NCBI GenBank assembly: GCA_044342325.1
Contig: JBIIPZ010000005.1
Span: 34,002-98,001 of the forward strand
DNA: 64,000 nt
Direction of reading: 5' to 3'
From: Terrimicrobiaceae bacterium
GTDB lineage: Bacteria > Verrucomicrobiota > Verrucomicrobiia > Chthoniobacterales > Terrimicrobiaceae
Below are positions 3,982 to 60,396 of the stretch, in pieces. The stretch's first letter is position 1. Every line of letters begins with the position of its first letter. A program made the position numbers and the translations under genes. A model generated the notes under the pieces. That model searched no databases. It was not told the origin of the DNA and worked only from the letters and a program-made list of their open reading frames with translations.

Positions 3982-6900
3982 TTAGAACGAGAAGCCGAGT
4001 GAGGTGCTGATGATGTTGTTTGTGTAGCCCTCGGCTCCGAAGTTCACGTTGTAGAATACCGACGCGCTCCAGCGGTCGCCCACCTTGGCGCTGATGCCTG
4101 CTCCGCCGAAGACGCTGTTGCTGTATGGCGCGCTGGTTTCGTAGTCGAACGATGGGCCGCTGCCGCCTTCGAGGGCGGAGCTGATGTTGCGCGGTTCGTT
4201 GAGGAACTCGTGCATCCAGAACCCGCGCACTTCGGGGATGAGCGTGGTGTTTGTGGCAACTTCCCAGTTGTAGGCCAGGCGTGCGCCGAGGTTCGTGCGG
4301 AGGCTGTTGGCATTCTGCTCGCCGAGCGCGAGGTCGAGGCTGTCGGCGCCGGTTTCCGTGAACCCGCCGATGCCGGCGTAGGTGTATTGCGCGCCGATGA
4401 TCGGGCCAAGCGTGAACTTGCCGACCTCGAAGTCCTTCCCGAGGTTTAGTGCCGCGCTGAATTGGCCGCTGTTCGGATTCGCCCGCGCCGTGCGGTCGAT
4501 TGAGCCGAACTCGATCGAGCGCCGAGTTTGGAAGCCGGTGTAGCCACCACTCACGATGGCGTCGGCGTAGTAACCGTCCTCGTGCGTGTAGCTGCCATAG
4601 AGGCCGAAGAGCGCGCTGTTGCCGCGTGTGCTGCTGCCGCCGTTGTATTTCGCGTAGCTGTATTCGTAGCCCGCGAAGAGGCCTGCCACGAAGTTCTCGC
4701 TCAGGCGGTAGTCGGCACCAACAAGGAACCCGCCGGCGTTGTTGTTGTAGTTCGGAACTCCGGCCAGTCCGCGAGAGATCGAAAACTCGCCGTTGGCCAT
4801 CACCCACGCGTTCCAGTTCGTCTCGATGGCGGATTCCACGATCGGCGAGGCCGTCTTAGCATCCGCCGTGCTCTTGCCGTCCTTGTCGTATTTGATCGGT
4901 TGGCTCAGGCCGATGGATTGGAAGCCTGTCGCCCCCAGACGCAGGGTGCCGAGGCGTTGGGTGAGGAGTTGGGTCTGGTTGTAGGTTTGTTCGATCAAGA
5001 TATCTCCGAGGCTTTCGTAGAAGCCGGGCATGATCTGGTCGAAGGCCGCAGGGAATTGCTCGGTCGTCAGCGAGTCGAGGGCTGTGCCGACGAGGACTGC
5101 ATCGCCTTCCGTGGCCAGAACAAAGCTGTCGAGAGCCTTGGCCACATTGCGTTGGTTTGGGTTGAGCGCGTAGGGAACGAAGCTTTCCGGCCCGAAGAGG
5201 AGCGACCCAACCGTTCCAAGGTTCAAGAAGCGCCCGCGCAGGCCATCGGGAACCACGATTGAATCGAACTCGCCCACAATGCTTCCCGCCTGCAGGAAGT
5301 CGTAGCGTGTGCCGGGCGTGATTTTCGCGCCTTCATAGGATTGCGCCTCCAATGTGCCGCCGAGGGTCGCTTGGCCGCTCACGACGATGCGGTCGAAGTT
5401 CGTCGGGCTGGCGATTTCGATGACGGTCGAACTGCCATCGGAGAGCAGCAGGTTGCCGGCGATGCTCAGCGTGCCGGGCGAATTGCCCGGGGAGAGGTTG
5501 CCCAGCACCACAACATTTTGGGTGATGATCAGGCCCGCGCCGCCGAGTGAGGCGAGCGGATCCACCACAACCTCGTTCGCGGCCAATTGCCCATTCACAG
5601 ACAGAAGTCCGGCATTCACAAGCGCTGTGCCGTTGACACTCATGTTGCTTTGGACATCGAGTTCCCCAGTCCCAAGCTTGTCAAAATTTCCCGGTGTGAC
5701 GACTGTGCCACCGCTAACAACAGATGCACCGGACTGCACGTTGAGCACGCCTGAGGTGACGATGAGTTTTCCCCCCGTTTCGATGGCGAGCGGAGCATTG
5801 TTACCGAATTTCAACGCATTCACGATGTTGGTTTGGCCCTTTGTGATCGTAGCTTGGGTCACATCGTAGTCGGCCACGACGGGCGTGTTCGGCCCGCCGT
5901 TGTTTTCGATGTTCGGGCCGGTGGACTCGGCTCCAGTGACAGTGTAGACCACAGTTTTGTTGGTCGTTGTGAAACTTCCGAAGAGTTTTGTGTATTCGCC
6001 GTGGGCCGCAGTGAATTTCCCGTTGTCCGCAGTTACGGTTCCATTGGTCGAAACCAGTGTGTAAGCGCCGGAATCCAGCGCTTGCACCTCGCTGAAGTCG
6101 AAGGTCGCGTTGCCCAGGGTGGAAACCGTGAAATTTCCGGCGACATTGATTTTCAAGTCCTGCGCGAGCGGTGAACTTCCCGTGTCGAAGAAGGCAATCC
6201 TGCCGCCGGTCCAATCGAGGTTGCCGCCGATCGAGAGCGTCAGGTTGCCCATGATGGACTCCTGCGAGGAGGTGACGAGGAGCTTGCCGCCATCGAGCGT
6301 GACGCTGCCTGTTCCAAGCGCCTGCGGGGCTTCCACCCAGAGTTTACCTTCCGAGATCGTGGTTCCACCAGTGTAGGTGTTGGTAGCACGAAGCCTTGTC
6401 ACTCCCGATCCGACCTGCGCGAAGGAACCGGCTCCGCTGATGACGTTGGAAATAATGGCTTCGTTGGTGCGGTTGACGGCAAAGGTCGCTCCGGAATCCA
6501 CAGAGATGTTGCTGCTGATGGCGCCCGCTGTGCCGCCGAGGGCGAGCGTTCCTGCGGAGATGGTGGTGAGACCGCTGTAGGTGTTGTTGCCGGAGAGCGA
6601 CAGGGTTGAGCTGCCGTTCTTCGTCAGAGCGGAGTTGCCCGAGATGATTCCGCTGATTTCGATGTCGGCAGCGGCGGCATCAACCTTGAGAACATCGCCT
6701 GCAGTCAAATCCATCCCGATGGTTTGAAGATTGCTGGAAGCGTTGATGATGCCGTCCTCGCCGATTTGCAGGGTGTTGCCATTGACGGTGTAGGCACCTG
6801 CTCCTTCGACGAAGTTGAACCCGGAGATCGACGAGAGGGAGGCGGCAGCGAAGTTGTTCGTGCTCGTGCCACCAGGTCCGGCGAATTCGACCTCGTCGCC

Positions 6901-46850: not shown

Positions 46851-47525
46851 GTGCGCTTCATTGTCAAATTTTCGCTGGCCGTCTTCATCGCACTCGGCGG
46901 GTATTTGTTCTGGCCGCGAAGCAGCTCGCTTTCTTCGTTTGATGCCGCTTCGATGGCGGAGTTGCAAGTAGGCATCTGGCGACACGCGGCAGCGGGCAAG
47001 GAAACACAAGCCCTCTTCGATCTCTACAGCATCTTCGAAGGCCAATACCGCATCCCTCCTCTCCCCGCGCTGTCGGCAGCCATGAGCATACTCCAAGCCC
47101 GGCGCGCGTTTGCCGACGCTGCGGATCAAGCCGACGAGGAGCAAGCCCTGCCATTTTTAGAGAACACCTTTTCCATCCTCGCCAAAAAAACCGCCTCAAA
47201 CCTTGATCCACATATCCTCGCGAGACTCGAGCTCTTCACATGGTCACTCGCACGCGACCGCTCGAAGGAACGCCAACTAGCCGCAGCCATCTCCGAAAAA
47301 CTCGCTCTGCTCCACGGCGGCGCGGCAAAGGATTATCAAGCCGCCGCCTCGGACTTTGCACATGCCAGGCGTCTCGCAGTCGCGAAAAACTGGAGCGCGG
47401 CGAGCGATGCCGAAACCGCCGCATGGCAAAAGCTACGCCGCCAACTTGACTCCCGCAGCCAACAACCAGCAGATCACCGCGCGGCAGATCCCTCCGCCGG
47501 ATCAAGCCGCAGTAGCCAGTTGTAA
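46851..47525 (+). CDS. Hypothetical membrane-anchored protein
   Basis: N-terminal TM and helical body; follows the ChdC-like gene by 15 bp. Confidence 0.65.
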   Translation: MRFIVKFSLAVFIALGGYLFWPRSSSLSSFDAASMAELQVGIWRHAAAGKETQALFDLYSIFEGQYRIPPLPALSAAMSILQARRAFADAADQADEEQALPFLENTFSILAKKTASNLDPHILARLELFTWSLARDRSKERQLAAAISEKLALLHGGAAKDYQAAASDFAHARRLAVAKNWSAASDAETAAWQKLRRQLDSRSQQPADHRAADPSAGSSRSSQL

Positions 47526-49381
47526 ACGATCAGACTGTCAGGCGGAATGTTCAGGTAATCCGAGCCTGGAAGGACATTCCGCGACAGGAATCCAAAGAGC
47601 TTTTTTTCCCAGCGCCTCATTTGCTTGTTTGAACAAGTGACGATCAACTCCTGCGCGAGAATGTGGAACACAGGAATCCTCCACCCTCCCTCGCCGGCCT
47701 GCTCGGCACACTTTTGCAAAATCAAGGGCACATCCGGTTCGTTCATGTAACCATGCCGCGCACTTGCCTCCCAGAGACCAGCGGAGTGCTTTTTGATCGT
47801 TATGTTTTCAGCCTCGGCAAAAGGATTTCCCCACCCGGCGTCGAGCAAGAGAATCACCACATTTTCCGGCAGAACCTGCGTGCGCCGGTATTGCTCGAGA
47901 ATCCGTGCCACCGCGAATTCCGGATCAATCTGGCGCATCACATAAACCTGCGTTCCCGGCACACGGCGAAAATTCTCCGCCTCCATCCTCGCTGCCAGCT
48001 CCTGCACTCCCAGCGGGCTTGCCAGCAAGTGCCCATGCACCAAATCCCGACCCTTCCGCCAAGTGAGCATCACAGCCGCCACCGCTCCAGCCAGCGCCAA
48101 AGGCACGATGCCACCATCGGCGATTTTTGTGAGGCACGCGCCAAACAACGGCAAATCCAAACTCAACAGGCCAATCAAAACGACCACGGACCAGATGCGC
48201 GACACACCGGGCTCCGCCCACTTGACGACAAAAAACGCAACCGATGTCACAGCCATGGCTCCCGTCACCGCGACTCCATAAGCCCCCGCGAGCGCGTCCG
48301 CCGTGTGAAAACCCAACACCAGCATGATGCAGGCAATGCCAAAAAGACTGTTCAAAACAGGGATGTAAATCTGCCCTCGCGTCTCAGCGCTCGTGTGCCG
48401 CACATAGAATCTCGGCAGATACCCGAGATCCATCGCCTGGCTGGCCAGCGAGAACACCCCGCTGATCAGCGCCTGCGAGGCGATGATCGTCGCCGCCGTC
48501 GCCAACACGACAAGCGCCCCGCGCAGGTGCCCCTCCGGCATCATGAGAAAAAACAAATTCGTCTCGGCCGCATTCGCGGGATTTTTCATCACGAGGGCCG
48601 CCTGCCCGAGGTAGTTCAAAATCAGCGAGGGAAAAACAACCAGCCTCCAACCCGCCACGATCGGCTTCCGGCCAAAGTGCCCGAGGTCGGCGTAGAGCGC
48701 CTCCGCGCCCGTCACCGCCAAGACGACCGCACCCACCAGCGCCCATGCGCCCCACCCACCAGTCGCCAGCAGCCGCGCACCGTGCAGCGGATTCAAAGCC
48801 TGCAACACCTCCGGACAGGCACTGATTTGCACCACGCCCATGGCCGCCAACACAAGGAACCAGACCAACATGACCGGCCCGAAAACCCCTCCCAGCCGAC
48901 TCGTGCCAAAACGCTGGGCATAGAAAAAGCCCCCCAGAATAACCACAGCCAGCGGCAGTGAATAGCGACCCCACTCCGGATTCACACTCGCCAAGCCCTC
49001 CACCGCACTCAGCACCGAAACCGCTGGAGTGATTGCTCCGTCGCCGAAGAGCAGCGCCGCTCCGAAAACCAGCAGGCACGCCATCACCCCCCGGCTCACA
49101 GTCCTCGTCGGACGCCCGTCGAAAATCCGCGCCATCAACGCGAAAATCCCGCCCACGCCGTGGTAGTCAGCCTTCATGACCAACATCACATATTTCACCC
49201 AAACCACGAAAAAGAGCGTCCAAATGATCAGCGACGCCACACCCAGCGCAGCCTGCGCCCCGGCGATGCTCACCGCCAACTGATACGCATACAGCGGGCT
49301 CGTGCCGATATCCCCAAACACAACGCCCAGCGCCAAAACCGCCATTCCTGCAGCACCAAATTTGGTTTTTGTCCCAGCCAC
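47474..49381 (-). CDS. kup: KUP/HAK potassium transporter
   Basis: GVVFGDIGTSPLY, TGAEALYADLGHF, GQIYIP; AGGAGG upstream of GTG 49381. Confidence 0.95.
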   Translation of the reverse strand: MAGTKTKFGAAGMAVLALGVVFGDIGTSPLYAYQLAVSIAGAQAALGVASLIIWTLFFVVWVKYVMLVMKADYHGVGGIFALMARIFDGRPTRTVSRGVMACLLVFGAALLFGDGAITPAVSVLSAVEGLASVNPEWGRYSLPLAVVILGGFFYAQRFGTSRLGGVFGPVMLVWFLVLAAMGVVQISACPEVLQALNPLHGARLLATGGWGAWALVGAVVLAVTGAEALYADLGHFGRKPIVAGWRLVVFPSLILNYLGQAALVMKNPANAAETNLFFLMMPEGHLRGALVVLATAATIIASQALISGVFSLASQAMDLGYLPRFYVRHTSAETRGQIYIPVLNSLFGIACIMLVLGFHTADALAGAYGVAVTGAMAVTSVAFFVVKWAEPGVSRIWSVVVLIGLLSLDLPLFGACLTKIADGGIVPLALAGAVAAVMLTWRKGRDLVHGHLLASPLGVQELAARMEAENFRRVPGTQVYVMRQIDPEFAVARILEQYRRTQVLPENVVILLLDAGWGNPFAEAENITIKKHSAGLWEASARHGYMNEPDVPLILQKCAEQAGEGGWRIPVFHILAQELIVTCSNKQMRRWEKKLFGFLSRNVLPGSDYLNIPPDSLIVYNWLLRLDPAEGSAAR

Positions 49382-49398
49382 AGGATTGAGAATTCCTC

Positions 49399-49632
49399 CT
49401 ACGACAAATCCTCCGCCGTTACACTCTGCTGCGGGCGCGAGGCCAACATCCTCGCCTGCTCGACCACCCGCTCCGGCGCTTCGTCGAAGCGGTATCCGTG
49501 ACAGTTCGGACACGAGGTGACCCGCATCGTGACGATGGATTCACACCCCTCGCAAACCTTGAAATTTTCAGGTGCGGCGATGATTTTTTCCGCCCTCGCC
49601 GCGCGGTCCGCAAGATGATCAGTGCTCGACAT
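49399..49632 (-). CDS. Small zinc-ribbon protein
   Basis: KVCEGCESIV...CPNCHGYRFD, 77 aa. Confidence 0.75.
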   Translation of the reverse strand: MSSTDHLADRAARAEKIIAAPENFKVCEGCESIVTMRVTSCPNCHGYRFDEAPERVVEQARMLASRPQQSVTAEDLS

Positions 49633-49691
49633 TCCCGTATGCGTATCACCGATCTCGCAGTCCGCAAAATCCAAATCCACACGATCGCCGC

Positions 49692-49719
49692 TTGAAAAAC
49701 CCCGACACGCGTCTACCAT
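49692..49719 (+). promoter_or_regulatory. Putative sigma70 promoter of rnpB
   Basis: TTGAAA-N16-TACCAT, 7 bp upstream of the predicted RNA 5' end. Confidence 0.55.
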
Positions 49720-49726
49720 CTCCACC

Positions 49727-50149
49727 GATGGCGGACGGTCGCTCTCGGCCAGCCGCAAGGCGATTCGGGAGAGGAAAGTCCGGACACCACAAGGCAGCAT
49801 GCCGCGTAGAATGCGCGGGGGGCCGGGGCCAAAGTCCCGGTCGACGGAAAGTGTCACAGAGAACATACCGCCCACCCCGGCGCAAGCCGGGCGGCAAGGG
49901 TGAAAAGGCGGAGTAAAAGCCCACCGCCCCGAGCGTAAGCAAGGGGGCACGAAAAACCCCATGCGGTGCAAGACAGAACAGGAGGGATCGGGTCGCCTGC
50001 CCAACACGCCGCGCAAGCGGCGACACCCTCCGGGTATTGGTCGCAGTCCGCAAGGACCCCGCCCCGCCGCGAGGCGTGGAGTGAGACAAATGACCGTCCA
50101 GGCAGTCGGCGCAAGCCGCCCGCTGGACAGAATCCGGCTTACAGCCATC
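49727..50149 (+). ncRNA. rnpB: RNase P RNA (class A)
   Basis: GAGGAAAGTCCGG, GAAAGTGTCACAGA, ACAGAATCCGGCTTA; P1 pairing GATGGC/GCCATC. Confidence 0.96.
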
Positions 50150-50157
50150 AACCCCTC

Positions 50158-50197
50158 GGGGGCGCTCCGCAAACACGGCGCGCCCCCGGCCTTTTTT
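50158..50197 (+). terminator. Putative rnpB terminator
   Basis: GGGGGCGC...GCGCCCCC stem followed closely by TTTTTT. Confidence 0.45.
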
Positions 50198-50198
50198 A

Positions 50199-50426
50199 TC
50201 ACTGCTGTTGTTGCTGCTCCTGCTGCGGCCTGCCCAAAGCCTCCGCCTCCACCAAAACCGCCCCCTTCAGCAACCGGCAAAACTCCTTTTTCGTCACCTC
50301 CTGATGCGGCCCCCGCCCGCTCAAAGGATCCGTCATAGTCTTATATTGCACCTCCAACCGCCCCAACTGAACAATCCGGTAATACTCGCTCCCCTTATGC
50401 CAAATCTGATTCTGCTGAAGTTTCAT
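50199..50426 (-). CDS. Small hypothetical protein
   Basis: 75-aa ORF MKLQQNQIWHKGSEYYRIVQLGRLEVQYK...KKEFCRLLKGA with globular composition. Confidence 0.65.
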   Translation of the reverse strand: MKLQQNQIWHKGSEYYRIVQLGRLEVQYKTMTDPLSGRGPHQEVTKKEFCRLLKGAVLVEAEALGRPQQEQQQQQ

Positions 50427-50479
50427 ACCTCAACTTATCCAGCCCCCGCCACCCATGCGCCAACCTTTTAAACTAGGGG

Positions 50480-51538
50480 TCAGTGTTCATTTTCTTTCAT
50501 TTTTTCCGAGACAAACCGCCACAGCGCCTCTGAAACCTTCTCCTCAAGCCGCGCCGGATCCATACGATGAACCACCCGGCTCACATTCGCGGCTGTTTTC
50601 ATGCTCAGATGCTCGGCAATCCACATCTGCGAGACCGTAGTCTTTTTCCATAGCAATCCAGCCAAGAGCACCTTCCGCGGCTCGGTGCAACGATGCCCGG
50701 CCAACTCATCCTTGGTGAGTTTTGCAACTCGTAATCCCTCCTCCAAAAGCTCAAGCGCTTTTTGTTCCCCGTGAGCCTTTCTTTCAGGGCTTGCATCATA
50801 GCCGCGCGCCTTGCGCTTTCGGCCGATAGCCGCCTCGCCGAGCTTCATCAATTTCTCCGCGAACGCCTGTTTTCCCCAATACCAGCCCCGTCGCAAATGG
50901 CTTCCCCGCTTGTCGGCATCCGCATCCACCGCCACAAACCCGCTCCGCTCACGCTCCTCCGCCGCGCGCTTGTCCAAGCGCTCGACCATTTTTTTCCGAC
51001 CCTCCGCCGTATCCTCCACCCCCATCGTCCCCAGCCCCTGATCCGCAGCCAGCCACTTCGCCCTCTGATGCGGCATCACGGCATACCCACCCGCCAAGCT
51101 ACTCCACGGATAATCCAAAACACTCTGCCCCTGCGTGACATCGACCAGCCCAGCACGGCAAGGATTCAAGTGAATGTAATCCCACAGCGTTTCATAGTAA
51201 TAAGGGCTCTCCCCATCGACCACCACCGCCTTGTAGCGATCGCCAAACAACCGCCCCCACTCGCGATGCCGCACATTGAACCGCCGCGTCACCGTGTTTT
51301 GCAGCCATTTCATCCCCTCCACCAAGTTCGCCTCGGGCGTCTGAATGAAAAGGTGGTAATGGTTTTCCATCAACACCCAAGCATGCACCTTCCAACCCGT
51401 TTTTTCACAGACATCCGCAAGGCATTGCAAAAAAAACCGCCGATCATGATCATCCAAAAAAATCGCCGCCTTCCGATTCCCCCGAGCCATCACATGGTAA
51501 AAAGCTCCTTCAAATTCCAATCGAATACTTCGTGCCAT
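50480..51538 (-). CDS. HUH/Y1 tyrosine transposase (RAYT-like) with C-terminal HTH-like extension
   Basis: YHVMARGN, HUH motif NHYHL, GRLFGDRYKA, catalytic YIHLNPCRAG, YPWSS. Confidence 0.92.
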   Translation of the reverse strand: MARSIRLEFEGAFYHVMARGNRKAAIFLDDHDRRFFLQCLADVCEKTGWKVHAWVLMENHYHLFIQTPEANLVEGMKWLQNTVTRRFNVRHREWGRLFGDRYKAVVVDGESPYYYETLWDYIHLNPCRAGLVDVTQGQSVLDYPWSSLAGGYAVMPHQRAKWLAADQGLGTMGVEDTAEGRKKMVERLDKRAAEERERSGFVAVDADADKRGSHLRRGWYWGKQAFAEKLMKLGEAAIGRKRKARGYDASPERKAHGEQKALELLEEGLRVAKLTKDELAGHRCTEPRKVLLAGLLWKKTTVSQMWIAEHLSMKTAANVSRVVHRMDPARLEEKVSEALWRFVSEKMKENEH

Positions 51539-51824
51539 ACCGAAAATCCAACAGATGAAAGCGACGCGCGCAAACTAAAAGTGAAAGAAAATGAACCCTG
51601 ACCCCTAGTTTGGTTCGTCGGCGTTCTTTTGGGGTTAGCGTTGTGTTGAGGACTTCCGGCAAGAGCTGGGCTGCCAAACGAAAATTGCAAAGCAAACACC
51701 ATGACGCATGGCCGTCGCTCTTGCGCGGAAAGTTTTTCCTTTCGACAAACACCCCCGACACCTGCCGCGCATCTTTTTCATTTCCAGCACCGCCGCTGCT
51801 TTCTAAAAAATCCCCCCATCCCGC

Positions 51825-54416
51825 ATGAAGCGCTCCACAAAAAAACACGCCGCCCCGGAACTTCCTCCCGCGAGTGATTGGCGAACCTCCGACCAAGACG
51901 AAATTCTCAAGCGCCGCATCCGCGCCCGCGAGGAAACCTTCCGCATCGAAAACCTCGACCCCGCCGAGTCCATCTTTTCAAACTTCGAAATCCATTCCGC
52001 CAGCGGCATGTCCTACCGTGCCGAAATCCGCGACATCGCCGCCGCGCAGTATTCCTGCACCTGCACGGATTTCCGCATCAATGGTCTGGGCACCTGCAAA
52101 CATATCGAGGCGCTCCTCCTCCAACTCGCCCGTCGCCAGCGCGCCGCATTCTCCGCCGCCAAGCGCCTACCGTCCCCGCGCATAGACCTTGTCCCCCACG
52201 CCGAATCCAGCCGCCTCCGGATCGAACGCAATCTCGACAAACTCCCCGCCCGCTTCCGCTGCCTCTTTGATTCCGAAGGTTTCCAAATCTCCGACCTCGA
52301 CCCCGAATCCCTCCACGAAAAACTCCTAAAAAATCCCGCCCACGTGCTGCGCATTTCGCAGGATACCAAGGCCTGGCTCGCCCACCGCGCCCGCGAGCGC
52401 GATTGCGTGCTCACCCGCCGCGACTACGAGATCGGTGTCCGCGACGGCCGCCATCCCGAGCAGGTCACGCTCCATCCGCTCTTTCCCTACCAGCGCGAAG
52501 GCATGCTCCACCTTGCCTTCCGCGAGAGAGCCCTCCTCGCCGACGAAATGGGCCTCGGCAAGACCATTCAAGCCATCGCCGCATGCGCGCTCTTACACTC
52601 GCTCGGCAAGGCCCGCCGCGTCCTCGTCGTCACACCGGCCTCCCTCAAAACGGAATGGGAGGAGCAGATCAAAAAATTCACCACCCACCCGCTGCGCCTG
52701 GTCTTCGGCGGCCGCTCCGCCCGCGCCGCGCTTTACCGCGACCCAGACCCCGCCTTTTTCACCATCGCGAACTACGAGCAAATCGTTTCCGACTCGCTCG
52801 AGATCAATACCCACCTGCGCCCGGATATCGTCGTTCTCGACGAAGCCCAGCGCATCAAGAACTGGCCCACCAAGACCGCCCAAGCCGTCAAACGCCTCCA
52901 GAGCCGCTACGCCTTCGTCCTCACCGGCACACCCATCGAAAACCGCATCGACGAACTCCGCTCCCTCGTCGACTTCCTCGACCCCGCCCTTCTCGGCCCG
53001 CTTTTCCGCTTCAACCGCGAGTATTACGAACTCGACGAGCGCGGTCGACCATCCGGCTACAAAAACCTCGCCCGGCTCCGCGAACGCGTCCGCCCCATTC
53101 TCCTCCGTCGCCGCAAGCGCGATGTTGAAACCGAACTCCCCGACCGCTCGGACCGCAACCACTTCGTCCGCCTCACCAAGCCCATGCAGGATGAATACGA
53201 CGAGCACAAGGCCACCGCCAGCCGCCTCGTCAACAAATCCAAAACCCGCCCTCTCACGCCCAGCGAACAAGATATCCTGATGATCTCGCTCAACTGCATG
53301 CGAATGGTCTGCGACTCGCCCTGCCTCATCAAAAAGAACCCCTCCCGCGACTGCCCAAAGCTCGAGGAACTCGGCGGCATCCTAGACGAACTCCTCTCGG
53401 ACCCGGATGTCAAAATCATCGTCTTCTCCGAGTGGACCGGCATGCTCGAGTTCGTCCGCGACCTCGCGAAAAAACTCGGCGTCCACTTCGCCTGGCACAC
53501 CGGCTCTGTTCCACAACAACGCCGCCGCGCCGAGATTCTCGCCTTCCGCAACGACCCCGCCTGCCGCCTCTTCCTCAGCACCGACTCCGGCGGCGTGGGA
53601 CTCAATCTCCAGAACGCCAGCGTCGTCATAAACTGCGACCTCCCTTGGAATCCCGCCAAGCTCGAGCAGCGCATCGCACGCGCTTGGCGCAAGGGCCAAC
53701 TCCGCCCCGTCACCGTTGTCAACCTCGTCGCCGAACACACCATCGAGCACGCCATGCTCGGTTCCCTCGCCGCAAAGACCGGCCTCTCCGAAGGCGTCCT
53801 CGACGGCGCCGACCTTGCCAACATCAAACTCAAAACCGGCCGCGACTCGCTCCTCAAGCGCCTCGAGCAAATCCTCGCGCCCACAGATTCACAAAAAACC
53901 GCGCCGCCCGCACCCGTCACCGACCCCGCCGCGCACTTTGCCAACCGGGCCCGCGAAACCCTTGGCATGCGCCTCCAGCATTGCGAGGAGACCTGGATTC
54001 CCGGGCGCGATACCCCGATCCTCCTCGCCGTCGTCGATAAAATCGACCCTGCATCCAGTGAGAAAATCCAAGCCCTCCACCGCGAAAACCCCTGGCCAGG
54101 CACTTCCCAAAACGCCCTCCAAATCCTCGACGCCTCGACTTGGGATGCCCTGAAAAATCTCGCCGCCGTCGGCATGATCACCATCCAAAGCCGTGCCGCC
54201 CGCCCACTCATTCCCGCTGCAGGCGAACCTCTCCGCCCGCCTCTCACGCCCGAGCAACTCGCCCGCATCGCCACACTCCGCGCCCTCGCCGCAAAAAAAC
54301 ACCGCGCCGCCGAAGCCCTTACCTCCGCCGGACTCCCCGAGGAAGCCGAGCCACTCCTCGCCGCAGCCCGCGAAGCCGAAGCCCAGGCCCTCGCCATCGA
54401 GTCCGGCCAAGCCTAA
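51825..54416 (+). CDS. SWIM zinc finger + SNF2-family helicase/ATPase
   Basis: CTCTDF...TCKH; LADEMGLGKT; DEAQ; TGTPIEN; WNPAKLEQRIARAWRKGQ. Confidence 0.93.
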   Translation: MKRSTKKHAAPELPPASDWRTSDQDEILKRRIRAREETFRIENLDPAESIFSNFEIHSASGMSYRAEIRDIAAAQYSCTCTDFRINGLGTCKHIEALLLQLARRQRAAFSAAKRLPSPRIDLVPHAESSRLRIERNLDKLPARFRCLFDSEGFQISDLDPESLHEKLLKNPAHVLRISQDTKAWLAHRARERDCVLTRRDYEIGVRDGRHPEQVTLHPLFPYQREGMLHLAFRERALLADEMGLGKTIQAIAACALLHSLGKARRVLVVTPASLKTEWEEQIKKFTTHPLRLVFGGRSARAALYRDPDPAFFTIANYEQIVSDSLEINTHLRPDIVVLDEAQRIKNWPTKTAQAVKRLQSRYAFVLTGTPIENRIDELRSLVDFLDPALLGPLFRFNREYYELDERGRPSGYKNLARLRERVRPILLRRRKRDVETELPDRSDRNHFVRLTKPMQDEYDEHKATASRLVNKSKTRPLTPSEQDILMISLNCMRMVCDSPCLIKKNPSRDCPKLEELGGILDELLSDPDVKIIVFSEWTGMLEFVRDLAKKLGVHFAWHTGSVPQQRRRAEILAFRNDPACRLFLSTDSGGVGLNLQNASVVINCDLPWNPAKLEQRIARAWRKGQLRPVTVVNLVAEHTIEHAMLGSLAAKTGLSEGVLDGADLANIKLKTGRDSLLKRLEQILAPTDSQKTAPPAPVTDPAAHFANRARETLGMRLQHCEETWIPGRDTPILLAVVDKIDPASSEKIQALHRENPWPGTSQNALQILDASTWDALKNLAAVGMITIQSRAARPLIPAAGEPLRPPLTPEQLARIATLRALAAKKHRAAEALTSAGLPEEAEPLLAAAREAEAQALAIESGQA

Positions 54417-54424
54417 ACCACCCC

Positions 54425-55711
54425 ATGGCCCTCCGCCTCTGCAGCGAGATACTCCACGGCGAACTCGAGAACCGCCAACCGGGCCGCACCACCGGCATTC
54501 TCCACCTCGTCGGCCACAAAGAACCACTCACCCTCGACCTCGTTGGCAACCCTTGGCGCGACCTCGCAGGCCATCGCGTTGTTTTCAAAAACCCATCACC
54601 CGGTCCCGCCCGCGAAGCCATTTCCAGACTCGTTAAAAAACAAACCGGCCGCGTCGGCGACATCACCGCCTCCCGCAAAGTGAAGGTCCTCGACTGCCCT
54701 CTCGAGGAACTCTCCGCCCTCCACAGAGAGAACCGCCCCATCCCCCACCACTGGGCAAATTCCCTCTACCTCGAATGGTTCGGCGACACCAACGGACGCA
54801 TCGTTGTCGAGGCCACTGGATTTGAAATTTCCATCGACCCCGAGCCCGCTTGGACCATGACCACCGAGGACGAGACCGCGCAGCATGAGGACAACCGCTC
54901 CGCTATGCTCGATTTCGCAAACTCCCTCGGCGCCGCCTTTGCCAACGGCCTCGTGGAACTCCCCGCCATCGACGAATCCGACGACGAACCGCAGAGCCGA
55001 CTCGAAGCCGAGGCCGACTCCGAAGCCGCCCGAATGAACCTTCTACTCGACCGCATCCAAGCCCGAATGCTCCGTGAGGATGCCGATCCCGAGGATTTCG
55101 ACGAAATCTGGGACGAGGAACGCGAAAGGCTCCGCATCGAGCTCGGCGAACCCGAACCCCCGCCACTCACGCCCGAGCAGGAGGCCGGCATGGACGCCCG
55201 CATCGACGAACTCAACGCCCTCTCCAACGAAGCCATCCACGACCAAGCTGATAATCCACCCTTCGGTGAATCCGAAGACCATCCCCTTGTCGAAAAAGCC
55301 CGCGATCTCGCCATCTCCATGCACCACGCCGCCGAAGCCGCCGGCTGGATTCCCGAAGGCTCACCGCCGGAGCATCCCCTGAATGAAGCCTGGTCCTGCA
55401 TCGCCACGGCATCCGCCAAGCTCGCCGGCGCCCTCAACATCCACGATCCCGAAGACTGGCCCCCGGAACCACTCTTCGCCGGACACGCACTCCACCGCCT
55501 CAAGACGGCCCGACGCTTCCTCCGCGACGCCCTGCTCGCCATTGAAACCGCAGCAGCAGACCACCTCGCACCCACCGAATGGACCTCCTCCATAGCGGCC
55601 GCCCTCACCTCCGAAATCCTCCCCCAAATCGAGCACCTCATCACCGAAGTCCGCCTCATTCTCAACGCCGCCGACCAACATCCCGACTTGGACGACGAGG
55701 ACCTCCCATGA
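54425..55711 (+). CDS. Hypothetical protein with acidic helical C-terminal half
   Basis: ATG 8 bp after the helicase stop; GELENRQPGRTTG...LYLEWFGDTNGRIVVE; overlaps the next gene (ATGA). Confidence 0.8.
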   Translation: MALRLCSEILHGELENRQPGRTTGILHLVGHKEPLTLDLVGNPWRDLAGHRVVFKNPSPGPAREAISRLVKKQTGRVGDITASRKVKVLDCPLEELSALHRENRPIPHHWANSLYLEWFGDTNGRIVVEATGFEISIDPEPAWTMTTEDETAQHEDNRSAMLDFANSLGAAFANGLVELPAIDESDDEPQSRLEAEADSEAARMNLLLDRIQARMLREDADPEDFDEIWDEERERLRIELGEPEPPPLTPEQEAGMDARIDELNALSNEAIHDQADNPPFGESEDHPLVEKARDLAISMHHAAEAAGWIPEGSPPEHPLNEAWSCIATASAKLAGALNIHDPEDWPPEPLFAGHALHRLKTARRFLRDALLAIETAAADHLAPTEWTSSIAAALTSEILPQIEHLITEVRLILNAADQHPDLDDEDLP

Positions 55712-56385
55712 AGCCGCCCGCTGATTCCGACGCCATCCTCGTCTTCCCCAGCCAAGGAGAGGGCGACTGCGCCCACTGCGCCGCCCCGCTCTATCGTAGC
55801 CCCTTCGTCACTTTCAAAAATGACACCATCGCCTGCGTGAAATGCGGGGGATTGGAAAACCTCGAGTTCCTCCCCTCCGGCAACGCCGCCCTCACACGCC
55901 GCACCAACGCGCTTTCCGCCATCAAGTATGTCGTCCTGAAATTCAGTCGCGCGCGCAAACGCTACGAACGCCAAGGCATTCTTGCCCACCCCGAGATTCT
56001 CGACCAGGCCCGCCGTGAATGCGAGGCCGACGAAGCCGCTCGCGAAGCCAAACGCCACGCCTCCTCCGCGCGCCGGGTCAAACAGGACGCCGCCTACATG
56101 GCCGCCCTCGCCTCCCGCATCCGCGAACTTTATCCCTCCGCCCCAGTCGGCGTGGAACACGAAATCGCCACCCACGCCTGCCGCAAACACAGCGGCCGCG
56201 TCGGCCGAACCGCCTTCGCAAAGGAACTCGCACCCGAATCCATCCACCTCGCCGTCCGCGCCCACATCCGCCACCACCACACATCCTACGACCGCCTCAT
56301 GTCCAGCGGCGCCGATCGCGCCGATGCCCGCCGCCTCGTCGCCGCCCACATCGAAGAAACAACCCGCCGCTGGCTCAATCCCTGA
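55708..56385 (+). CDS. DUF2293-domain protein with N-terminal CxxC...CxxC
   Basis: FSRARKRYERQG; HACRKHSGRVGRT; AVRAHIRHHHTSYD. Confidence 0.85.
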   Translation: MKPPADSDAILVFPSQGEGDCAHCAAPLYRSPFVTFKNDTIACVKCGGLENLEFLPSGNAALTRRTNALSAIKYVVLKFSRARKRYERQGILAHPEILDQARRECEADEAAREAKRHASSARRVKQDAAYMAALASRIRELYPSAPVGVEHEIATHACRKHSGRVGRTAFAKELAPESIHLAVRAHIRHHHTSYDRLMSSGADRADARRLVAAHIEETTRRWLNP

Positions 56386-56625
56386 TTTTACATGATGCTC
56401 CCCCTCGGCACATGAAAGGGCTCACGCTTTGGAGCGCGGAAAAAGACGAACGATTCAAATAGTGTTACCTACGTCCTGACCGAGCCCGATTCGACCTTCC
56501 CACGCAACCCCGTTCCCATCACTTCTCGCCACACCGTTCTTTCACCAAAAATGAAAGAAAATGAACACTGACCCCTAGTTTGAGAGTCGCTTGTTAGCCA
56601 GTTTAAATATCTCTCTGGTTTTAAT

Positions 56626-58275
56626 TTAATGGATTTTTATTTCCACGAATTGTGCGGCGAGCTGCGTGCGGGCTTCGTTGAAAAATTTTTGCAGGGCGCG
56701 TTGGCGGGCTTCGTTGAGGCCGCCTTGGAGCGCAGAGAGAGCTTGGATGCGGTAGTTCAATTGATCGTCGTGTTGAGGATTGAGGTAGGGAATTTTTCGC
56801 ATGCGCGCAACGAGGCGGGCGGTGAGCGATCCATCCTCCAGAGGATTGCCGTTTTCATCGTAGGCGGAGCGCCAAGCTGTGTTTTCGAGCCACACGCCAG
56901 ATTCGTCCACTGTGCTGTAGAGAAGCGTGGCATTCAGCCCGCCGGGTTTCGTGAGGTCAACGATCATTGCCGGGATGTTGTTGTTTTCAGGGCTGGCGCG
57001 ATCCAGTGCTCGCTTCCCAATCTGCCAACCTGCGTTGCGGTAGCACACCGTGACATCGTGGTAACCAAAGAATGGATAATCCAGCGAGATGGTCGCGATG
57101 ATACCGTCTTTGGCATATTGCCAGATGTGCGAATACACACCGTCCTCAAACGCCGCGCGCTTCGGCACAGGACATCTTTGAGAGACTAAACGCCAGCCAT
57201 CGAGTTCAGCGGGCATTTCAAATCGTGCCTCACCATTCATCCATGAGGGATTGATGACTTTGGCTTTCTCTTTTCCAACATGAAAATCCCAACCTCGGAC
57301 GACCTGTGCCGCACCGAGGATCACAAGAATGAGGCCCACCCAGCGAACTCCGCCGCTGCATGCGCGGCCTTGTAAAATAGTTCCAGTGTGGGTTTCAGGA
57401 GTCTTTAGCGGTTGGCTGGGATCCGCGAGGAGTTTTGCGATGATTGCATCTGCTGCTACGATGAATCCAAGATAAGTTGCCGTGAGGACAAGTCCCAGGG
57501 CTTCGTGTTTCCATCCGGAAAAGAGATCGATCCGGTATTCCACCAAAAGAAACGCCCCGCTTGTGATGCGGAGCAGGTTGCCTGCGAGCACATATCCAAT
57601 CGTCAGTGCGTAGAGCACGATAAGAAAGAGGAGCGAGCGGCGACGCCACAAGGCGTAGAAGACGCAAGCGGATGTCATGAAAAGGACGGAGTTGATCCCG
57701 CTGCAAGCCTCTTCGACGAGCAATCGCTGGTCAGGAACATCAATAATACTCCCGCTGAGCGTATGAGGCACACCGATGATTGCCAGCACGCTGCTACTGC
57801 CTGAAACAGCCCATTCCTGCAATTGAAGAGCCAGACGCGTGTCGAGTTTGAGTGGAGGTGGAAGCAGCGTCAGAAACATCAACCAGGATGGCAGCAGCGC
57901 ACGGCAAAGTTCTGCGCCGCCCAACCACCACGATAAAATGATTACACTGAAGAGAAACGCTACCACACCGAGCCAGGGCGACCACATGACCGTTGCCACG
58001 GTGAGTAACCCAAAAACCAGCACGATTGCCGGTATGGTGACCCGTTTCGATCCAGATATGAGCGGGCGCTTTGCCTCACTGCATCCTCGCTGAGCCAGCA
58101 CGAAGGCACCTGCAAGAGCCAATGGGAAAAACTGGTAGGTTGAAAAATGCCACAGATTGAAAAAAAACTGCGCCATCAGCGGCCCGAAACCAACCAAGCC
58201 AATCAAGACCAAACTCCGAAAGTCCAGCTGTCGGGCTTGAGCGGAATTGTTATCCACAGTGCGCAGAGAGGTCAC
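56626..58275 (-). CDS. Exosortase with C-terminal soluble domain (exosortase U-like)
   Basis: Catalytic VEEACSG, NLLRI, HEALG; about 8 or more TMs; near a PEP-CTERM gene. Confidence 0.88.
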   Translation of the reverse strand: MTSLRTVDNNSAQARQLDFRSLVLIGLVGFGPLMAQFFFNLWHFSTYQFFPLALAGAFVLAQRGCSEAKRPLISGSKRVTIPAIVLVFGLLTVATVMWSPWLGVVAFLFSVIILSWWLGGAELCRALLPSWLMFLTLLPPPLKLDTRLALQLQEWAVSGSSSVLAIIGVPHTLSGSIIDVPDQRLLVEEACSGINSVLFMTSACVFYALWRRRSLLFLIVLYALTIGYVLAGNLLRITSGAFLLVEYRIDLFSGWKHEALGLVLTATYLGFIVAADAIIAKLLADPSQPLKTPETHTGTILQGRACSGGVRWVGLILVILGAAQVVRGWDFHVGKEKAKVINPSWMNGEARFEMPAELDGWRLVSQRCPVPKRAAFEDGVYSHIWQYAKDGIIATISLDYPFFGYHDVTVCYRNAGWQIGKRALDRASPENNNIPAMIVDLTKPGGLNATLLYSTVDESGVWLENTAWRSAYDENGNPLEDGSLTARLVARMRKIPYLNPQHDDQLNYRIQALSALQGGLNEARQRALQKFFNEARTQLAAQFVEIKIH

Positions 58276-58368
58276 AGAGAGTCGTTTGGAAAACCAGCGT
58301 TTTTAGGATGTGGAGTTGAGAATTTTAAAACCTGAAGCTTCAAGAAGTAGGCTCGGAAGGAGCGCAAT

Positions 58369-60123
58369 TCAAGGGAGCGCCAGCAACATTTGCTCTTCGG
58401 GGCTGAGTTGAGATTGATCGATCGTTGCCGCAAGGATCTCCGCTTGAGCGGGGCGGTTTATTTTTCGCAGGATGGCGGCGCGAATGGCTTGATTGGCAGC
58501 GGGGGCGTTTTTCCGGAGTGGGAGCGTATCGTAGAGGGCATCAGCTTGGGCGATCTCGCCCTGGCGCAGGAGGGCGAGCGCGGCGATGTGGCGGGTGCTG
58601 CGCTTGTTGGGGGATTTTTTATGTGCATCGAGTGCGATCTCGGCGGCTTGGGAGATATTTTCTTCTGCGAGGAGTTGTTGGTAGGCGAGTTCCCTGCGGG
58701 CCGAGGCTGAGTCTGGTAAAAACCCGAGCATTTCCTGATAAATCGGGATTAGGTCCCGAGCCGGAGTGGCAGCGGGCAACTGGCTGAGAACCAACTGAAA
58801 TCCAACCTCAGAGGTTTCCTTGTTGCGTGCAAGTGCCCAAGCGAGGCGCTTGGCTTCTTCGGGATGCCCGAACTTCGAGGCCGTTTCGACCAGGAGCTTG
58901 GCAAATGGGGCAGGTTCATTGATGCAGCGGATTTCCAACTCGCCCCACAAGCCCTTGGCGCGCTCCTCATCGCCATTTTTCTCGGCGGCATGCGCCAGAA
59001 AGAGGAGCCGCAGCGACGGCGCGGTGAGGGGCAGATTCCAACTGCGCAGGAAGGAGTTCATTTCCTCCCAATTTTCCAAGCGTGCCAGTGCGACGAGATA
59101 GGGGAAAAACCAGACATCCTCCGACACGGCGCGCTTTTCTCGGATGTAGTCGATGGCGCTCTGGTATTCCTGATGGAAGATCAGCCAATACGCGAGGGCC
59201 AGAGCATCCGGCTTGGCTGCCGTCGCACGCTCCAGCATGAGATTTTCTACGATGGCTTTTTGCTACGAGGGGTCGCTGACGAGTTCGAGATTTGCAGCGG
59301 ATAAAAGATCGTTGCCATCGCGCAGAGGATGGGCCTTGATCTGCTCGGCCAATTCATTGGTCGGGACCGTGGTATCTTGGGGGTTTCGCAACGCCTGCGC
59401 CGCGAGAAGCCGCAGCGCGGCCATGCCGGTGGGGGTTGTTTTTTTCGAGAGCGGGAGCAGGATCTCGCGGCTGGCCTCCGCATTCTCCTCCATGGCCGCC
59501 ACTCCGCCCTCGAGCAGGATTTTGTCGGCATCCTCACTGTCGCCGCATGAGGCGGCGGCGGATTTTGCGAGTTCTATGGCCTCGGCATTTTCCCCGTCGA
59601 GTCGCTTGAGGCGGATTTCGAGGATGGTCCGCCGTGTGGAGGGCGCTTGGGCAAGTTGCGACAGAGCCTGGAGGGCGACCTCCGTCATATTGCGATTCAG
59701 CGCCTGCTCGCCCAGAATGAGAATCTCCTCGGGCGTTGCGGCATTCAGCGCCATGAGCCTCTGCGTGTCAGTGAGAGCGGCGGGCACACCCCTCGAGGCA
59801 TTGAGAATGCGGATGCCGCGCTGCACATCCGGCGACTCGGGGCGGAGTATTTGAGCCACCTGGAGAAATTGCGAGGCCTCCTCGATCTGGCCCTGCGCCA
59901 TGGCTTTATCAAATTTCGACACCTGCTCCCGCGCACGCAGTGTTTTGAGCTTGCTGTAAACCTTGGGAGCCACGATCAGGCCCATGATGCCTAAAAAAGC
60001 CAAAACCAAAGCCCAGCGCACCCACAGGGGCGCAAGGAAGCCCAGGTATTTTTTGAAAAAGGACTTGCGCGATTTGCCATGCGTAAAATCCGGCAGCTGT
60101 GCGCTCGGAAGCGGATCACTCAT
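58369..60123 (-). pseudogene. Membrane-anchored TPR-like protein split by an in-frame TAG (59263-59265)
   Basis: ...GAC CCC TCG TAG CAA AAA GCC ATC GTA GAA AAT CTC ATG: the 286-aa and 289-aa ORFs share one frame. Confidence 0.75.
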
Positions 60124-60164
60124 AACTCATAACTTTTAGATTTTTACCCAATCCAGAGGGATTG

Positions 60165-60279
60165 ACCACGGAGGACACGGAGAGCACGGAGTAGATTGCA
60201 AGCTGATACAAAAACTCACCAATTTCAACTTGCTGCCAAACCTCAATTTCTACTCCGTGCTCTCCGTGTCCTCCGTGGT
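60165..60279 (+). repeat. MITE-like element with perfect 31-bp inverted ends of 9-bp periodicity
   Basis: ACCACGGAGGACACGGAGAGCACGGAGTAGA (60165-60195) / TCTACTCCGTGCTCTCCGTGTCCTCCGTGGT (60249-60279). Confidence 0.85.
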
Positions 60280-60333
60280 TAAATATATGAATTTGTTGTT
60301 TTTATCTGAGACGCCGCTTCGCGGCTGAGAATT

Positions 60334-60396
60334 GGGCCATGCGGGACGATGGCCCTCCCGTGGGGGTTACGACCGCAAGCGGGATGCCTGCGCTGC
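60334..60396 (-). repeat. Two REP-like hairpins at the PEP-CTERM gene end
   Basis: Minus strand GCAGCGCAGGCATCCCGCTTGCG and GGAGGGCCATCGTCCCGCATGGCCC. Confidence 0.6.

Follow-up and report, generated by a model that had tools for sequence, protein, structure and literature searches.

Locus and transposase

The window considered here is a stretch of 64,000 nucleotides from a draft genome of a Terrimicrobiaceae bacterium, and its subject is a tyrosine transposase gene lying between inverted copies of a 35-bp repeat (positions 50470-51611), together with the helicase operon and the further repeat copy that follow it. The host genome (G000) is metagenome-assembled, comprises 2.93 Mb in 78 contigs and is 86% complete. 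It was compared within its genus, a set of 41 genomes including G000 itself, in which the relatives are also draft metagenome-assembled genomes (MAGs) whose contigs often break at these repeats. The transposase unit is probably a TIRtron, that is, a TIRYT gene between terminal inverted repeats (TIRs), the outermost repeat being one of the solo copies scattered through the genus and the operon a neighbour of the unit.

The 35-mer has exactly three matches in the window at up to 3 mismatches, with a chance expectation of 0.00 (mean of 100 dinucleotide-preserving shuffles). The positions, strands and mismatches of these copies were given correctly in a preliminary description of this DNA, and the sizes of the two units it had delimited follow from them: 1,142 bp from the left to the inner copy, and 6,112 bp from the left to the outer copy (Table 1). 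Between the left and inner arms, 33 of 35 positions pair, and the repeat stops at 35 bp: a 40-nt inverted pair adds 5 flanking bases, only 3 of them pairing. All three copies carry the motif GGGGTCAG in the outer part of the repeat. At its 3' end the transposase gene shares its stop codon and last 8 codons with the left copy, 38 nt separate the start codon from the inner end of the inner copy, and the outer copy is located in a 240-bp spacer between the convergent DUF2293 and exosortase genes.

Table 1. Features of the locus and dispersed relatives of its repeat in the host genome (G000) and in one relative (G044); window positions unless a contig is named; ORF, open reading frame; aa, amino acids
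Feature	Position	Strand	Remarks
Left terminal inverted repeat of probable TIRtron	50470..50504	+	0 mismatches; outer end AAACTAGGGGTCAG
TIRYT gene, 352 aa	50480..51538	-	Pfam Y1_Tnp; sole ORF between left and inner copies
Right (inner) terminal inverted repeat of probable TIRtron	51577..51611	-	2 mismatches versus left copy
SNF2-family helicase	51825..54416	+	Pfam SNF2-rel_dom 6.5e-44, Helicase_C 1.1e-22
428-aa protein, no family match	54425..55711	+	ATG confirmed at 54425
DUF2293 protein	55708..56385	+	Pfam DUF2293 E 1.9e-22; ATG confirmed at 55708
Outer repeat copy, most likely solo	56547..56581	-	Perfect match to left copy, 35/35
Exosortase gene (EpsH family)	56626-58275		E 5.7e-31; convergent to operon
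Copies of the 35-mer in G000	Window (3); C42 (inverted pair 52 bp apart); C47 (solo); C65; C71
Remnants in G000	C65:9019-9250; C71:93674-93889; C55:40455-40665
Remnants in G044 (L056, G044:C275)	1996-2228; 5358-5589

The transposase matches Pfam Y1_Tnp (E 1.6e-12; 48 bits, cutoff 23), and its N-terminal HUH/Y1 nuclease domain contains H60-Y61-H62 and Y121-x3-N125-P126. The window protein was aligned with 29 homologues with intact ORFs, taken from 31 candidates after exclusion of L074 (early stop) and L108 (short). Across these 30 sequences H60-Y61-H62, N125 and P126 are invariant, and Y121 and W145-S146-S147 are conserved in at least 90%. The AlphaFold model of the full protein (predicted local distance difference test, pLDDT, 86.3) finds its best fold match in the complex of E. 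coli TnpA_REP with a REP hairpin (4er8_A; E 1.1e-7), aligned with a template modelling (TM) score of 0.73 on the target and a root-mean-square deviation of 2.2 over 150 columns; the next matches are the IS608, ISDra2 and IS200 transposases (E 1.5e-5 to 4e-4). When the C-terminal 103 residues are modelled alone (pLDDT 91.1), DnaA domain IV of four species takes the first four ranks (Z 8.4, 7.9, 7.2 and 7.1; next Z 4.7), and Foldseek also ranks DnaA domain IV first, but at E 0.14. Sequence searches of solved structures return weak matches only (4er8, E 0.07; DnaA, E 0.64).

On its predicted fold, the protein is a RAYT-type HUH/Y1 nuclease fused to a C-terminal helix-turn-helix of the DnaA domain IV type. 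Counting against this assignment, the DnaA likeness belongs to a predicted structure with a Z of about 8, near the range that can arise for helical domains, and the Pfam scan of the C-terminal half finds no domain, Bac_DnaA_C included. The NCBIfam REP_Tyr_transpos profile (NF047646) is matched across its whole length at 65.4 bits, which is also below its 80-bit cutoff. The NCBIfam IS200 profile reaches 24.3 bits against a cutoff of 55, far below the REP-transposase score.

Inverted ends accompany this gene well beyond the genus. Of 77 related loci, the 47 with a near full-length match and usable flanks were tested, the other 30 (fragments, N-terminal-only matches, or loci cut by contig ends) being dropped. 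An inverted repeat flanks the gene at E ≤ 1e-4 in 37 of the 47 loci, with homologues of 31-95% identity, and a same-orientation control repeat in 0 of 47. GGGTCA is present in 36 of the 37 flanking repeats and is still seen at 31% protein identity, where the MAGs bear the labels Nitrospinota and Deltaproteobacteria, and the inner part of the arm is lineage-specific. Upstream arms are found 25-77 nt before the start, downstream ones at most about 120 nt after the stop.

This arrangement corresponds to a class already described in 2013. The accessible text of Di Nocera, De Gregorio and Rocco (2013, BMC Genomics 14:522; PMC3733652) defines a TIRYT as a RAYT-like gene with long inverted repeats that share GGGGWSAS. 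The inner unit at 50470-51611 is a TIRtron of this class, and GGGGTCAG fits the consensus. The preliminary description had mentioned "GGGG-starting TIRs" around tyrosine transposases, and this is correct as far as the accessible parts of the two relevant papers go (PMC3733652, PMC6006769). The term TIRYT is rare in the accessible literature, where no biochemical study of a TIRYT turned up, and a literature search for the 8-mer motif returned unrelated primer matches only. In the accessible text of the 2013 paper, binding and cleavage assays on TIRYTs are left to future work (PMC3733652).

Repeat and cassette across the genus

In single-stranded form and with 10 flanking nt at each end, neither strand of the left repeat folds (folding free energy, dG, -0.2/-0.1 kcal/mol; z +1.6/+1.9), and folding of the inner and outer copies does not exceed chance (z +0.2 and -1.5). 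The repeat is neither palindromic nor GTAG-headed and is without a REP-like hairpin. Gene-less doublets from relatives, by comparison, are near-perfect long hairpins, with dG values of -30.7, -31.8 and -35.4 kcal/mol and z-scores of -6.9, -8.6 and -10.6. Together with the Pfam match and the fold, these energies bear out the earlier proposal of an HUH/Y1 tyrosine transposase within true inverted repeats and not hairpin REPs.

The repeat is dispersed. The host genome has 8 copies of the 35-mer at up to 7 mismatches (Table 1) and two further copies, one partial (C60) and one degenerate (C55). The variant shared by the left and outer copies is the commonest in the family; C42 has it as well, and C47 has it with one change. 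Across the genus, 28 of the 41 genomes contain a 28-nt degenerate core (up to 3 mismatches), copy numbers ranging from 0 to 40 per genome over the whole set, and a reversed-pattern control of this core has no matches in the 41. Repeats take the form of solo copies, gene-less inverted doublets of about 117 bp, and tandem arrays with a 35-nt period. Ten doublets in G015 and G023 share an identical 83-nt offset and a conserved interior; other doublets have offsets of 86-144 nt.

A further form combines one end-repeat with about 215 bp of the 3' end of the transposase gene; it is found on C65, C71 and C55 of the host genome, and similar pieces occur in G001, G017 and G044. These remnants measure about 215-233 bp, comprise the last 66 or so codons (the DnaA-like domain) and are 73-77% identical to the intact cassette. 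A reading as small genes was rejected: the open frame is at most 47 aa in four of five (three from G000, two from G044) and 64 aa in one. They appear to be decayed pieces of the cassette, and their similar length across genomes suggests that one truncated derivative spread.

The 1,142-bp unit itself behaves as a discrete, relocatable block among congeners, in line with the preliminary description. One full-length transposase gene is present in the host genome. The block 50470-51611 is matched end to end, and no further, in G015:C311, G023:C157, G023:C66, G017:C77, G013:C89 and G021:C20, at 77-85% identity, and the flanks of 13 cassettes mapped onto the window's genome define 9 contexts, the home locus and eight others. 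The G015 and G023 cassettes sit between blocks that are non-adjacent in the window's genome. The two cassettes of G023 share just 79.6% identity, which makes them old paralogues and not recent jumps.

Against relocation by transposition stands the failure to find an empty site or a target-site duplication for any cassette, doublet or solo copy compared with relatives: every such comparison (cassette flanks, doublet loci, outer-copy spacer) ran into a break in synteny or into spacer DNA that does not align. Insertion as such is therefore something we infer, and a stationary gene with rearrangements around it could account for part of the 9 contexts. AAACTAG at one end and CTAGTTT at the other stand in inverted and not direct orientation, and a 4-bp palindromic CTAG duplication is indistinguishable from the repeat itself.

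At the home locus of G044, the cassette (L057, G044:C294, 1457-2888) is a decaying copy: its transposase gene has lost about 240 bp internally (window 51051-51290), and 78 extra bases separate the left flank from the repeat. Left of the window's cassette, a 75-aa ORF on the minus strand (50199-50426), ending in a glutamine run (QQEQQQQQ) and without a family match, is kept beside the cassette's left flank in G015, G007 and G024.

Several known systems share features with this element. Judged against the accessible text of the 2013 description, the likeness to TIRtrons (PMC3733652) covers the RAYT-like HUH/Y1 gene, the long inverted repeats in place of REP hairpins, the repeat overlapping the 3' end of the gene (there, repeats sometimes overlap the gene, and figure legends mark this as 3'ov) and a moderately abundant repeat family occurring as singles, dimers and groups. 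A difference is the host, a freshwater Verrucomicrobiota lineage; relocation of the cassette among congeners, doublets with a conserved interior and breakpoints flush with the repeat ends are also seen in the present genus. In the available portions of Quentin et al. (2018, BMC Genomics 19:475; PMC6006769), 20 of 26 described TIRYTs fall in TnpA_Y1 subclass 2.1, whose members have a C-terminal helix-turn-helix (Bac_DnaA_C-like among them, HTH_23, HTH_28) and no REP hairpins. The present protein resembles this subclass (2.1.2) by its features: its length of 352 aa, the Y-x3-NP motif, the serine motif after the catalytic tyrosine (W145-S146-S147), the DnaA-related C-terminal helix-turn-helix and a gene without adjoining REP-like hairpins (PMC6006769, as far as its text is accessible). 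It differs in that the Bac_DnaA_C likeness is seen here in the predicted fold only, with no Pfam match.

With REPtrons (a RAYT with REP/REPIN sequences, such as E. coli TnpA_REP, PDB 4er8, and the REPIN-RAYT systems of Bertels and Rainey) the element has in common the catalytic fold, one full-length gene in this genome (at least one relative has two) flanked by inverted dispersed repeats, and gene-less doublets that fold into long hairpins. It differs in its single repeat, which is not a palindrome and has no GTAG head, in the extra DnaA-like domain and in a gene that changes genomic context among congeners. RAYT groups are mostly single-copy and vertically inherited, according to the accessible text of Bertels et al. 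(2017; PMC5581495), where the flanking 16-mers of groups 2 and 3 have 57 and 140 occurrences, compared with 0-40 repeat copies per genome here. Membership of the REPtrons was rejected on the sub-cutoff profile score and the lack of GTAG-headed palindromic REPs.

The HUH/Y1 catalytic core is also that of the IS200/IS605 elements (IS608, ISDra2). Elements of that type lack inverted ends, carry hairpins in subterminal position and usually occur in several copies. Membership was rejected here on the IS200 profile score, the inverted ends and the single full-length copy in the genome.

Breakpoints at the repeat ends

Homology with relatives stops flush with the outer ends of repeats in five cases. 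In the first, a 1,291-bp MFS gene present in G024, G047 and G007 is deleted in G000, G001, G048 and G049, homology ending exactly at 50469|50470: the junction reads ...CCAACCTTTT|AAACTAGGGG in G000, G001 and G048 (the flank in G049 is similar) and, undeleted, ...CCAACCTTTT|CTCAAAGAAACC in G024 and G007. In the second, the inner repeat in G049 abuts DNA resembling contig C42, not the operon. The third concerns the outer copy, where homology between G000 and a partial operon copy in G044 ends at the outer tip, and the fourth the same partial copy, which is truncated at window position 54913 by a 179-bp doublet, flush with the outer end of the doublet. The fifth is the left cassette junction in G017. 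In G048, 45 kb separate the two blocks that border the doublet on C42.

The partial operon copy in G044 (G044:C3:10552-12394; L050/L054) is 91% identical to a full copy 6.8 kb away on the same contig and is bounded by repeat ends on both sides. A 14-kb stretch between the operon and the gene for a 777-aa protein is specific to G044.

Read from these alignments, the breakpoints suggest that the repeat ends are sites of DNA breakage and joining. They fit a transposase that cuts and rejoins these ends and, equally, elements that accumulate in unstable spacers. A stronger reading takes the ends as enzymatically active recombination sites: one-ended events of the TIRYT would delete, invert or duplicate neighbouring genes, and segments between repeats, the 6.1-kb stretch included, would occasionally be carried along. 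The flush 1.29-kb MFS deletion, the G044 fragment ending at repeats on both sides, and the doublet and cassette junctions are what speak for it; we consider it unlikely.

A mechanism can be proposed by analogy. TnpA_REP and IS608-type enzymes act on single-stranded DNA, and the DnaA-type helix-turn-helix domain binds duplex DNA. One repeat cannot fold alone, and two inverted repeats on one strand could pair into a stem of 30 bp or more. The arms of a doublet, or more rarely those of a cassette, might thus pair on a transiently single-stranded template, and the DnaA-like domain would read the resulting duplex, or else the double-stranded repeat. The HUH/Y1 domain would then nick at the outer boundary (..AACTR|GGGGTCAG region) and rejoin the end elsewhere, so that doublets and, rarely, the whole cassette would move, sometimes with deletions or rearrangements flush with a repeat end. 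Under such a mechanism the contrast between "TIR" and "hairpin" would be only apparent. Both the putative cleavage site and the single-strand mechanism are carried over from relatives, a point to be set against the proposal.

The outer copy, the helicase operon and their meaning

The genes between the inner and outer copies form an operon in which the DUF2293 start overlaps the stop of the 428-aa gene (ATGA) and the helicase has a weak N-terminal match to a SWIM zinc finger (17 bits; cutoff 19.6). The 428-aa protein has no Pfam, NCBIfam or PADLOC match. A role as a defence system was considered and rejected: PADLOC and NCBIfam give generic SNF2 matches (ZorD, DpdE, DrmD), far below the family cutoffs, and no defence match for the partner genes of the helicase. 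The operon occurs in 10 of the 41 genomes and adjoins the cassette wherever contigs allow a view (G000, G001, G024, G048, G047, G044 and G050); the DUF2293 gene is truncated or internally deleted in G048, G007, G047, G001 and G050. In G026, which belongs to a different family, an SNF2 homologue of 63% aa identity is present, and the 7.8 kb around it contain no homologue of the 428-aa protein, DUF2293 or the TIRYT. Nor is the 6.1-kb stretch marked as foreign by base composition, with a G+C content of 61-67% for the operon, 54-66% for the left flank and 52-55% for the exosortase block.

That block, a lower-G+C segment at 56582-60300, holds the exosortase gene and ORFs at 58369-59238 and 59263-60123. 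It has no close counterpart in the five closest genomes (G001, G044, G048, G049 and G024); G048 has only a 67%-identical paralogue, and G015 has part of the block at 89% identity. To its right, at 60308-60363, lies an unrelated dispersed repeat, a 56-nt element that forms two short hairpins (-13.7 kcal/mol as folded DNA). The host genome has 28 copies of its 34-nt core at up to 6 mismatches, the segment holding the element has 50-63 matches in each of five close relatives (mostly to that repeat), and in G001, G007 and G048 it stands directly 3' of the helicase operon.

The outer copy is, on the sequence comparisons, most likely a solo family member in a variable spacer, and not the end of a demonstrated mobile unit. 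The DNA beside it shows no similarity to the transposase gene or the cassette flanks, the match being confined to 35-39 nt. Several relatives carry the cassette and operon in a different right-hand setting. In G024, one 15.9-kb contig has the left flank, the MFS gene (1,291 bp), the cassette, the full operon and the convergent gene for the 777-aa protein. A 27-nt core at up to 6 mismatches is matched there only by the two repeats of the cassette, with no outer copy. G047 has the same arrangement of MFS gene and cassette. A 267-kb contig of G048 aligns colinearly with window 47448-55789 over a single 8.36-kb stretch (94.5% identity), with the cassette flush with the same left flank, the 56-nt repeat after 55789 and no outer copy. 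In G007 the left flank runs into the MFS gene, and on the operon contig the third gene ends at 55789 and is followed by the 56-nt repeat and the 777-aa gene, without a repeat copy. G001 (94-96% identity) has the same left flank and cassette; 3' of its operon come a repeat copy, then the 56-nt repeat and the 777-aa gene, and no exosortase gene. In G049 the cassette sits at the same left flank, and there is no operon anywhere in the genome. The 135-bp inner flank of the outer copy (56412-56546) differs from G001 and from the main G044 copy; the outer copy together with this flank is colinear with the second, partial G044 operon copy (window 54913-56584, 89% identity).

Two points weigh against a solo outer copy. 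The deletion in G048, G007 and G047, from 55789 to the 56-nt repeat, would itself have removed an outer copy, which leaves G024 as the sole clear case of an intact operon without one, and the G024 spacer does not align with the spacer in the window. Even so, a TIRtron at 50470-51611, a solo copy at 56547-56581 and an operon that is the cassette's neighbour and not part of the element together make up the account we hold to be probable.

The preliminary description had proposed instead that a 6.1-kb transposon, with the left and outer copies as its working ends, carries the helicase genes as cargo beside the transposase and recently moved as a whole. Several features of the locus speak for this proposal: the pair is inverted and identical at 35 of 35 positions, the outer end of each copy is a homology breakpoint, and the operon is an accessory one that stands beside the cassette in every genome where the junction is visible. 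The identity of the pair, which had been taken as a sign of recent mobility of the long form, is however that of the family consensus, since both copies carry the commonest variant. The flanks, moreover, did not change together: the left flank is colinear in G001 and G048 (94-95% identity) while the DNA beyond the operon on the right differs, which means that the 6.1-kb stretch did not come in as a single unit. G024 with operon and cassette but no outer copy, and G049 with the cassette at the same left flank but no operon, point the same way, and the 35-mer proves to be a dispersed repeat, so that what had been named as grounds for giving up the cargo proposal is largely what the genus presents.

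Nor do other genomes reveal the long form in motion. Among the 41 genus genomes and the relatives searched, none revealed the 6.1-kb unit in a second copy or a second context, and no flanking direct repeat was found around the stretch. An empty site joining the small gene on the left to the exosortase gene, which the preliminary description had suggested looking for, was not found in the 41 genomes; the five closest lack the exosortase block, so such a joint is impossible there. Another suggestion of that description, a search for circles or junctions, gave contigs from public runs that break inside the repeat and do not bridge it, and a joint 50499->56556 in X2 and X4 (side 29). As a sign of excision this joint was rejected, being a repeat-to-repeat palindrome expected from any metagenome doublet. 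A convergent repeat pair around a shared segment of about 7-8 kb in three other genomes would favour cargo transposition, but the pair is in the same context in all three and shows no movement. A 6-kb loop would also, we infer, be a poor substrate for single-strand pairing of the ends. Recent movement of the whole stretch is therefore improbable.

The 7-8-kb segments with convergent repeats are L145 (G048:C18), L146 (G001:C43) and L147 (G047:C81), with G000 C55:32566-40665 in the host genome. Beside the remnant-bearing repeat, G048 has a local duplication of about 1.5 kb; G001 shows only about 0.2 kb of such a duplication before its contig ends.

The outer copy might also be all that is left of a second cassette that formerly stood 3' of the operon and has decayed, and truncated remnants are indeed common (C65, C71 and C55, and in G001, G017 and G044). 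Its match is limited, however, to 35-39 nt, the adjoining DNA is unlike the gene or the inner flanks of the cassette, and its 135-bp inner flank is shared with G044 as non-cassette sequence, so that we give this origin little credence.

A misjoin of the contig at the 35-bp repeat, which would make the link between operon and exosortase gene false, is very improbable: it could be suspected from the 78-contig, 86% complete draft, from the 777-aa gene (next to the operon in G001, G024, G007 and G048) lying on another contig that ends inside the gene, and from the unbridged contigs of independent runs, but the operon, 135-bp flank and repeat are colinear with G044, the independent run X2 has both arms adjoining the repeat with 0-1 differences at depths of 20.4 and 22.6, and a 35-bp repeat should be shorter than the reads of such assemblies.

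The kilobases of cargo between working ends, which had made this locus look exceptional, are thus not borne out, and what keeps it of interest is the clean doublet family, along with the breakpoints that fall flush with repeat ends. TIRYTs are widespread, and the accessible literature appears to hold no biochemical test of any of them. The genus supplies a neat collection of natural cases, with one full-length cassette here and two diverged copies in at least one relative, hairpin doublets of fixed architecture, and synteny that repeatedly ends exactly at the repeat tips. It would be a reasonable system in which to learn how inverted ends are recognised by an HUH single-strand nuclease with a DnaA-like, duplex-binding domain fused to it, and could also show whether TIRtron elements cause rearrangements. 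Should the repeat ends indeed be active, a "domesticated-looking" single-strand transposase would be driving gene-order change and gene mobilisation in freshwater Verrucomicrobiota.

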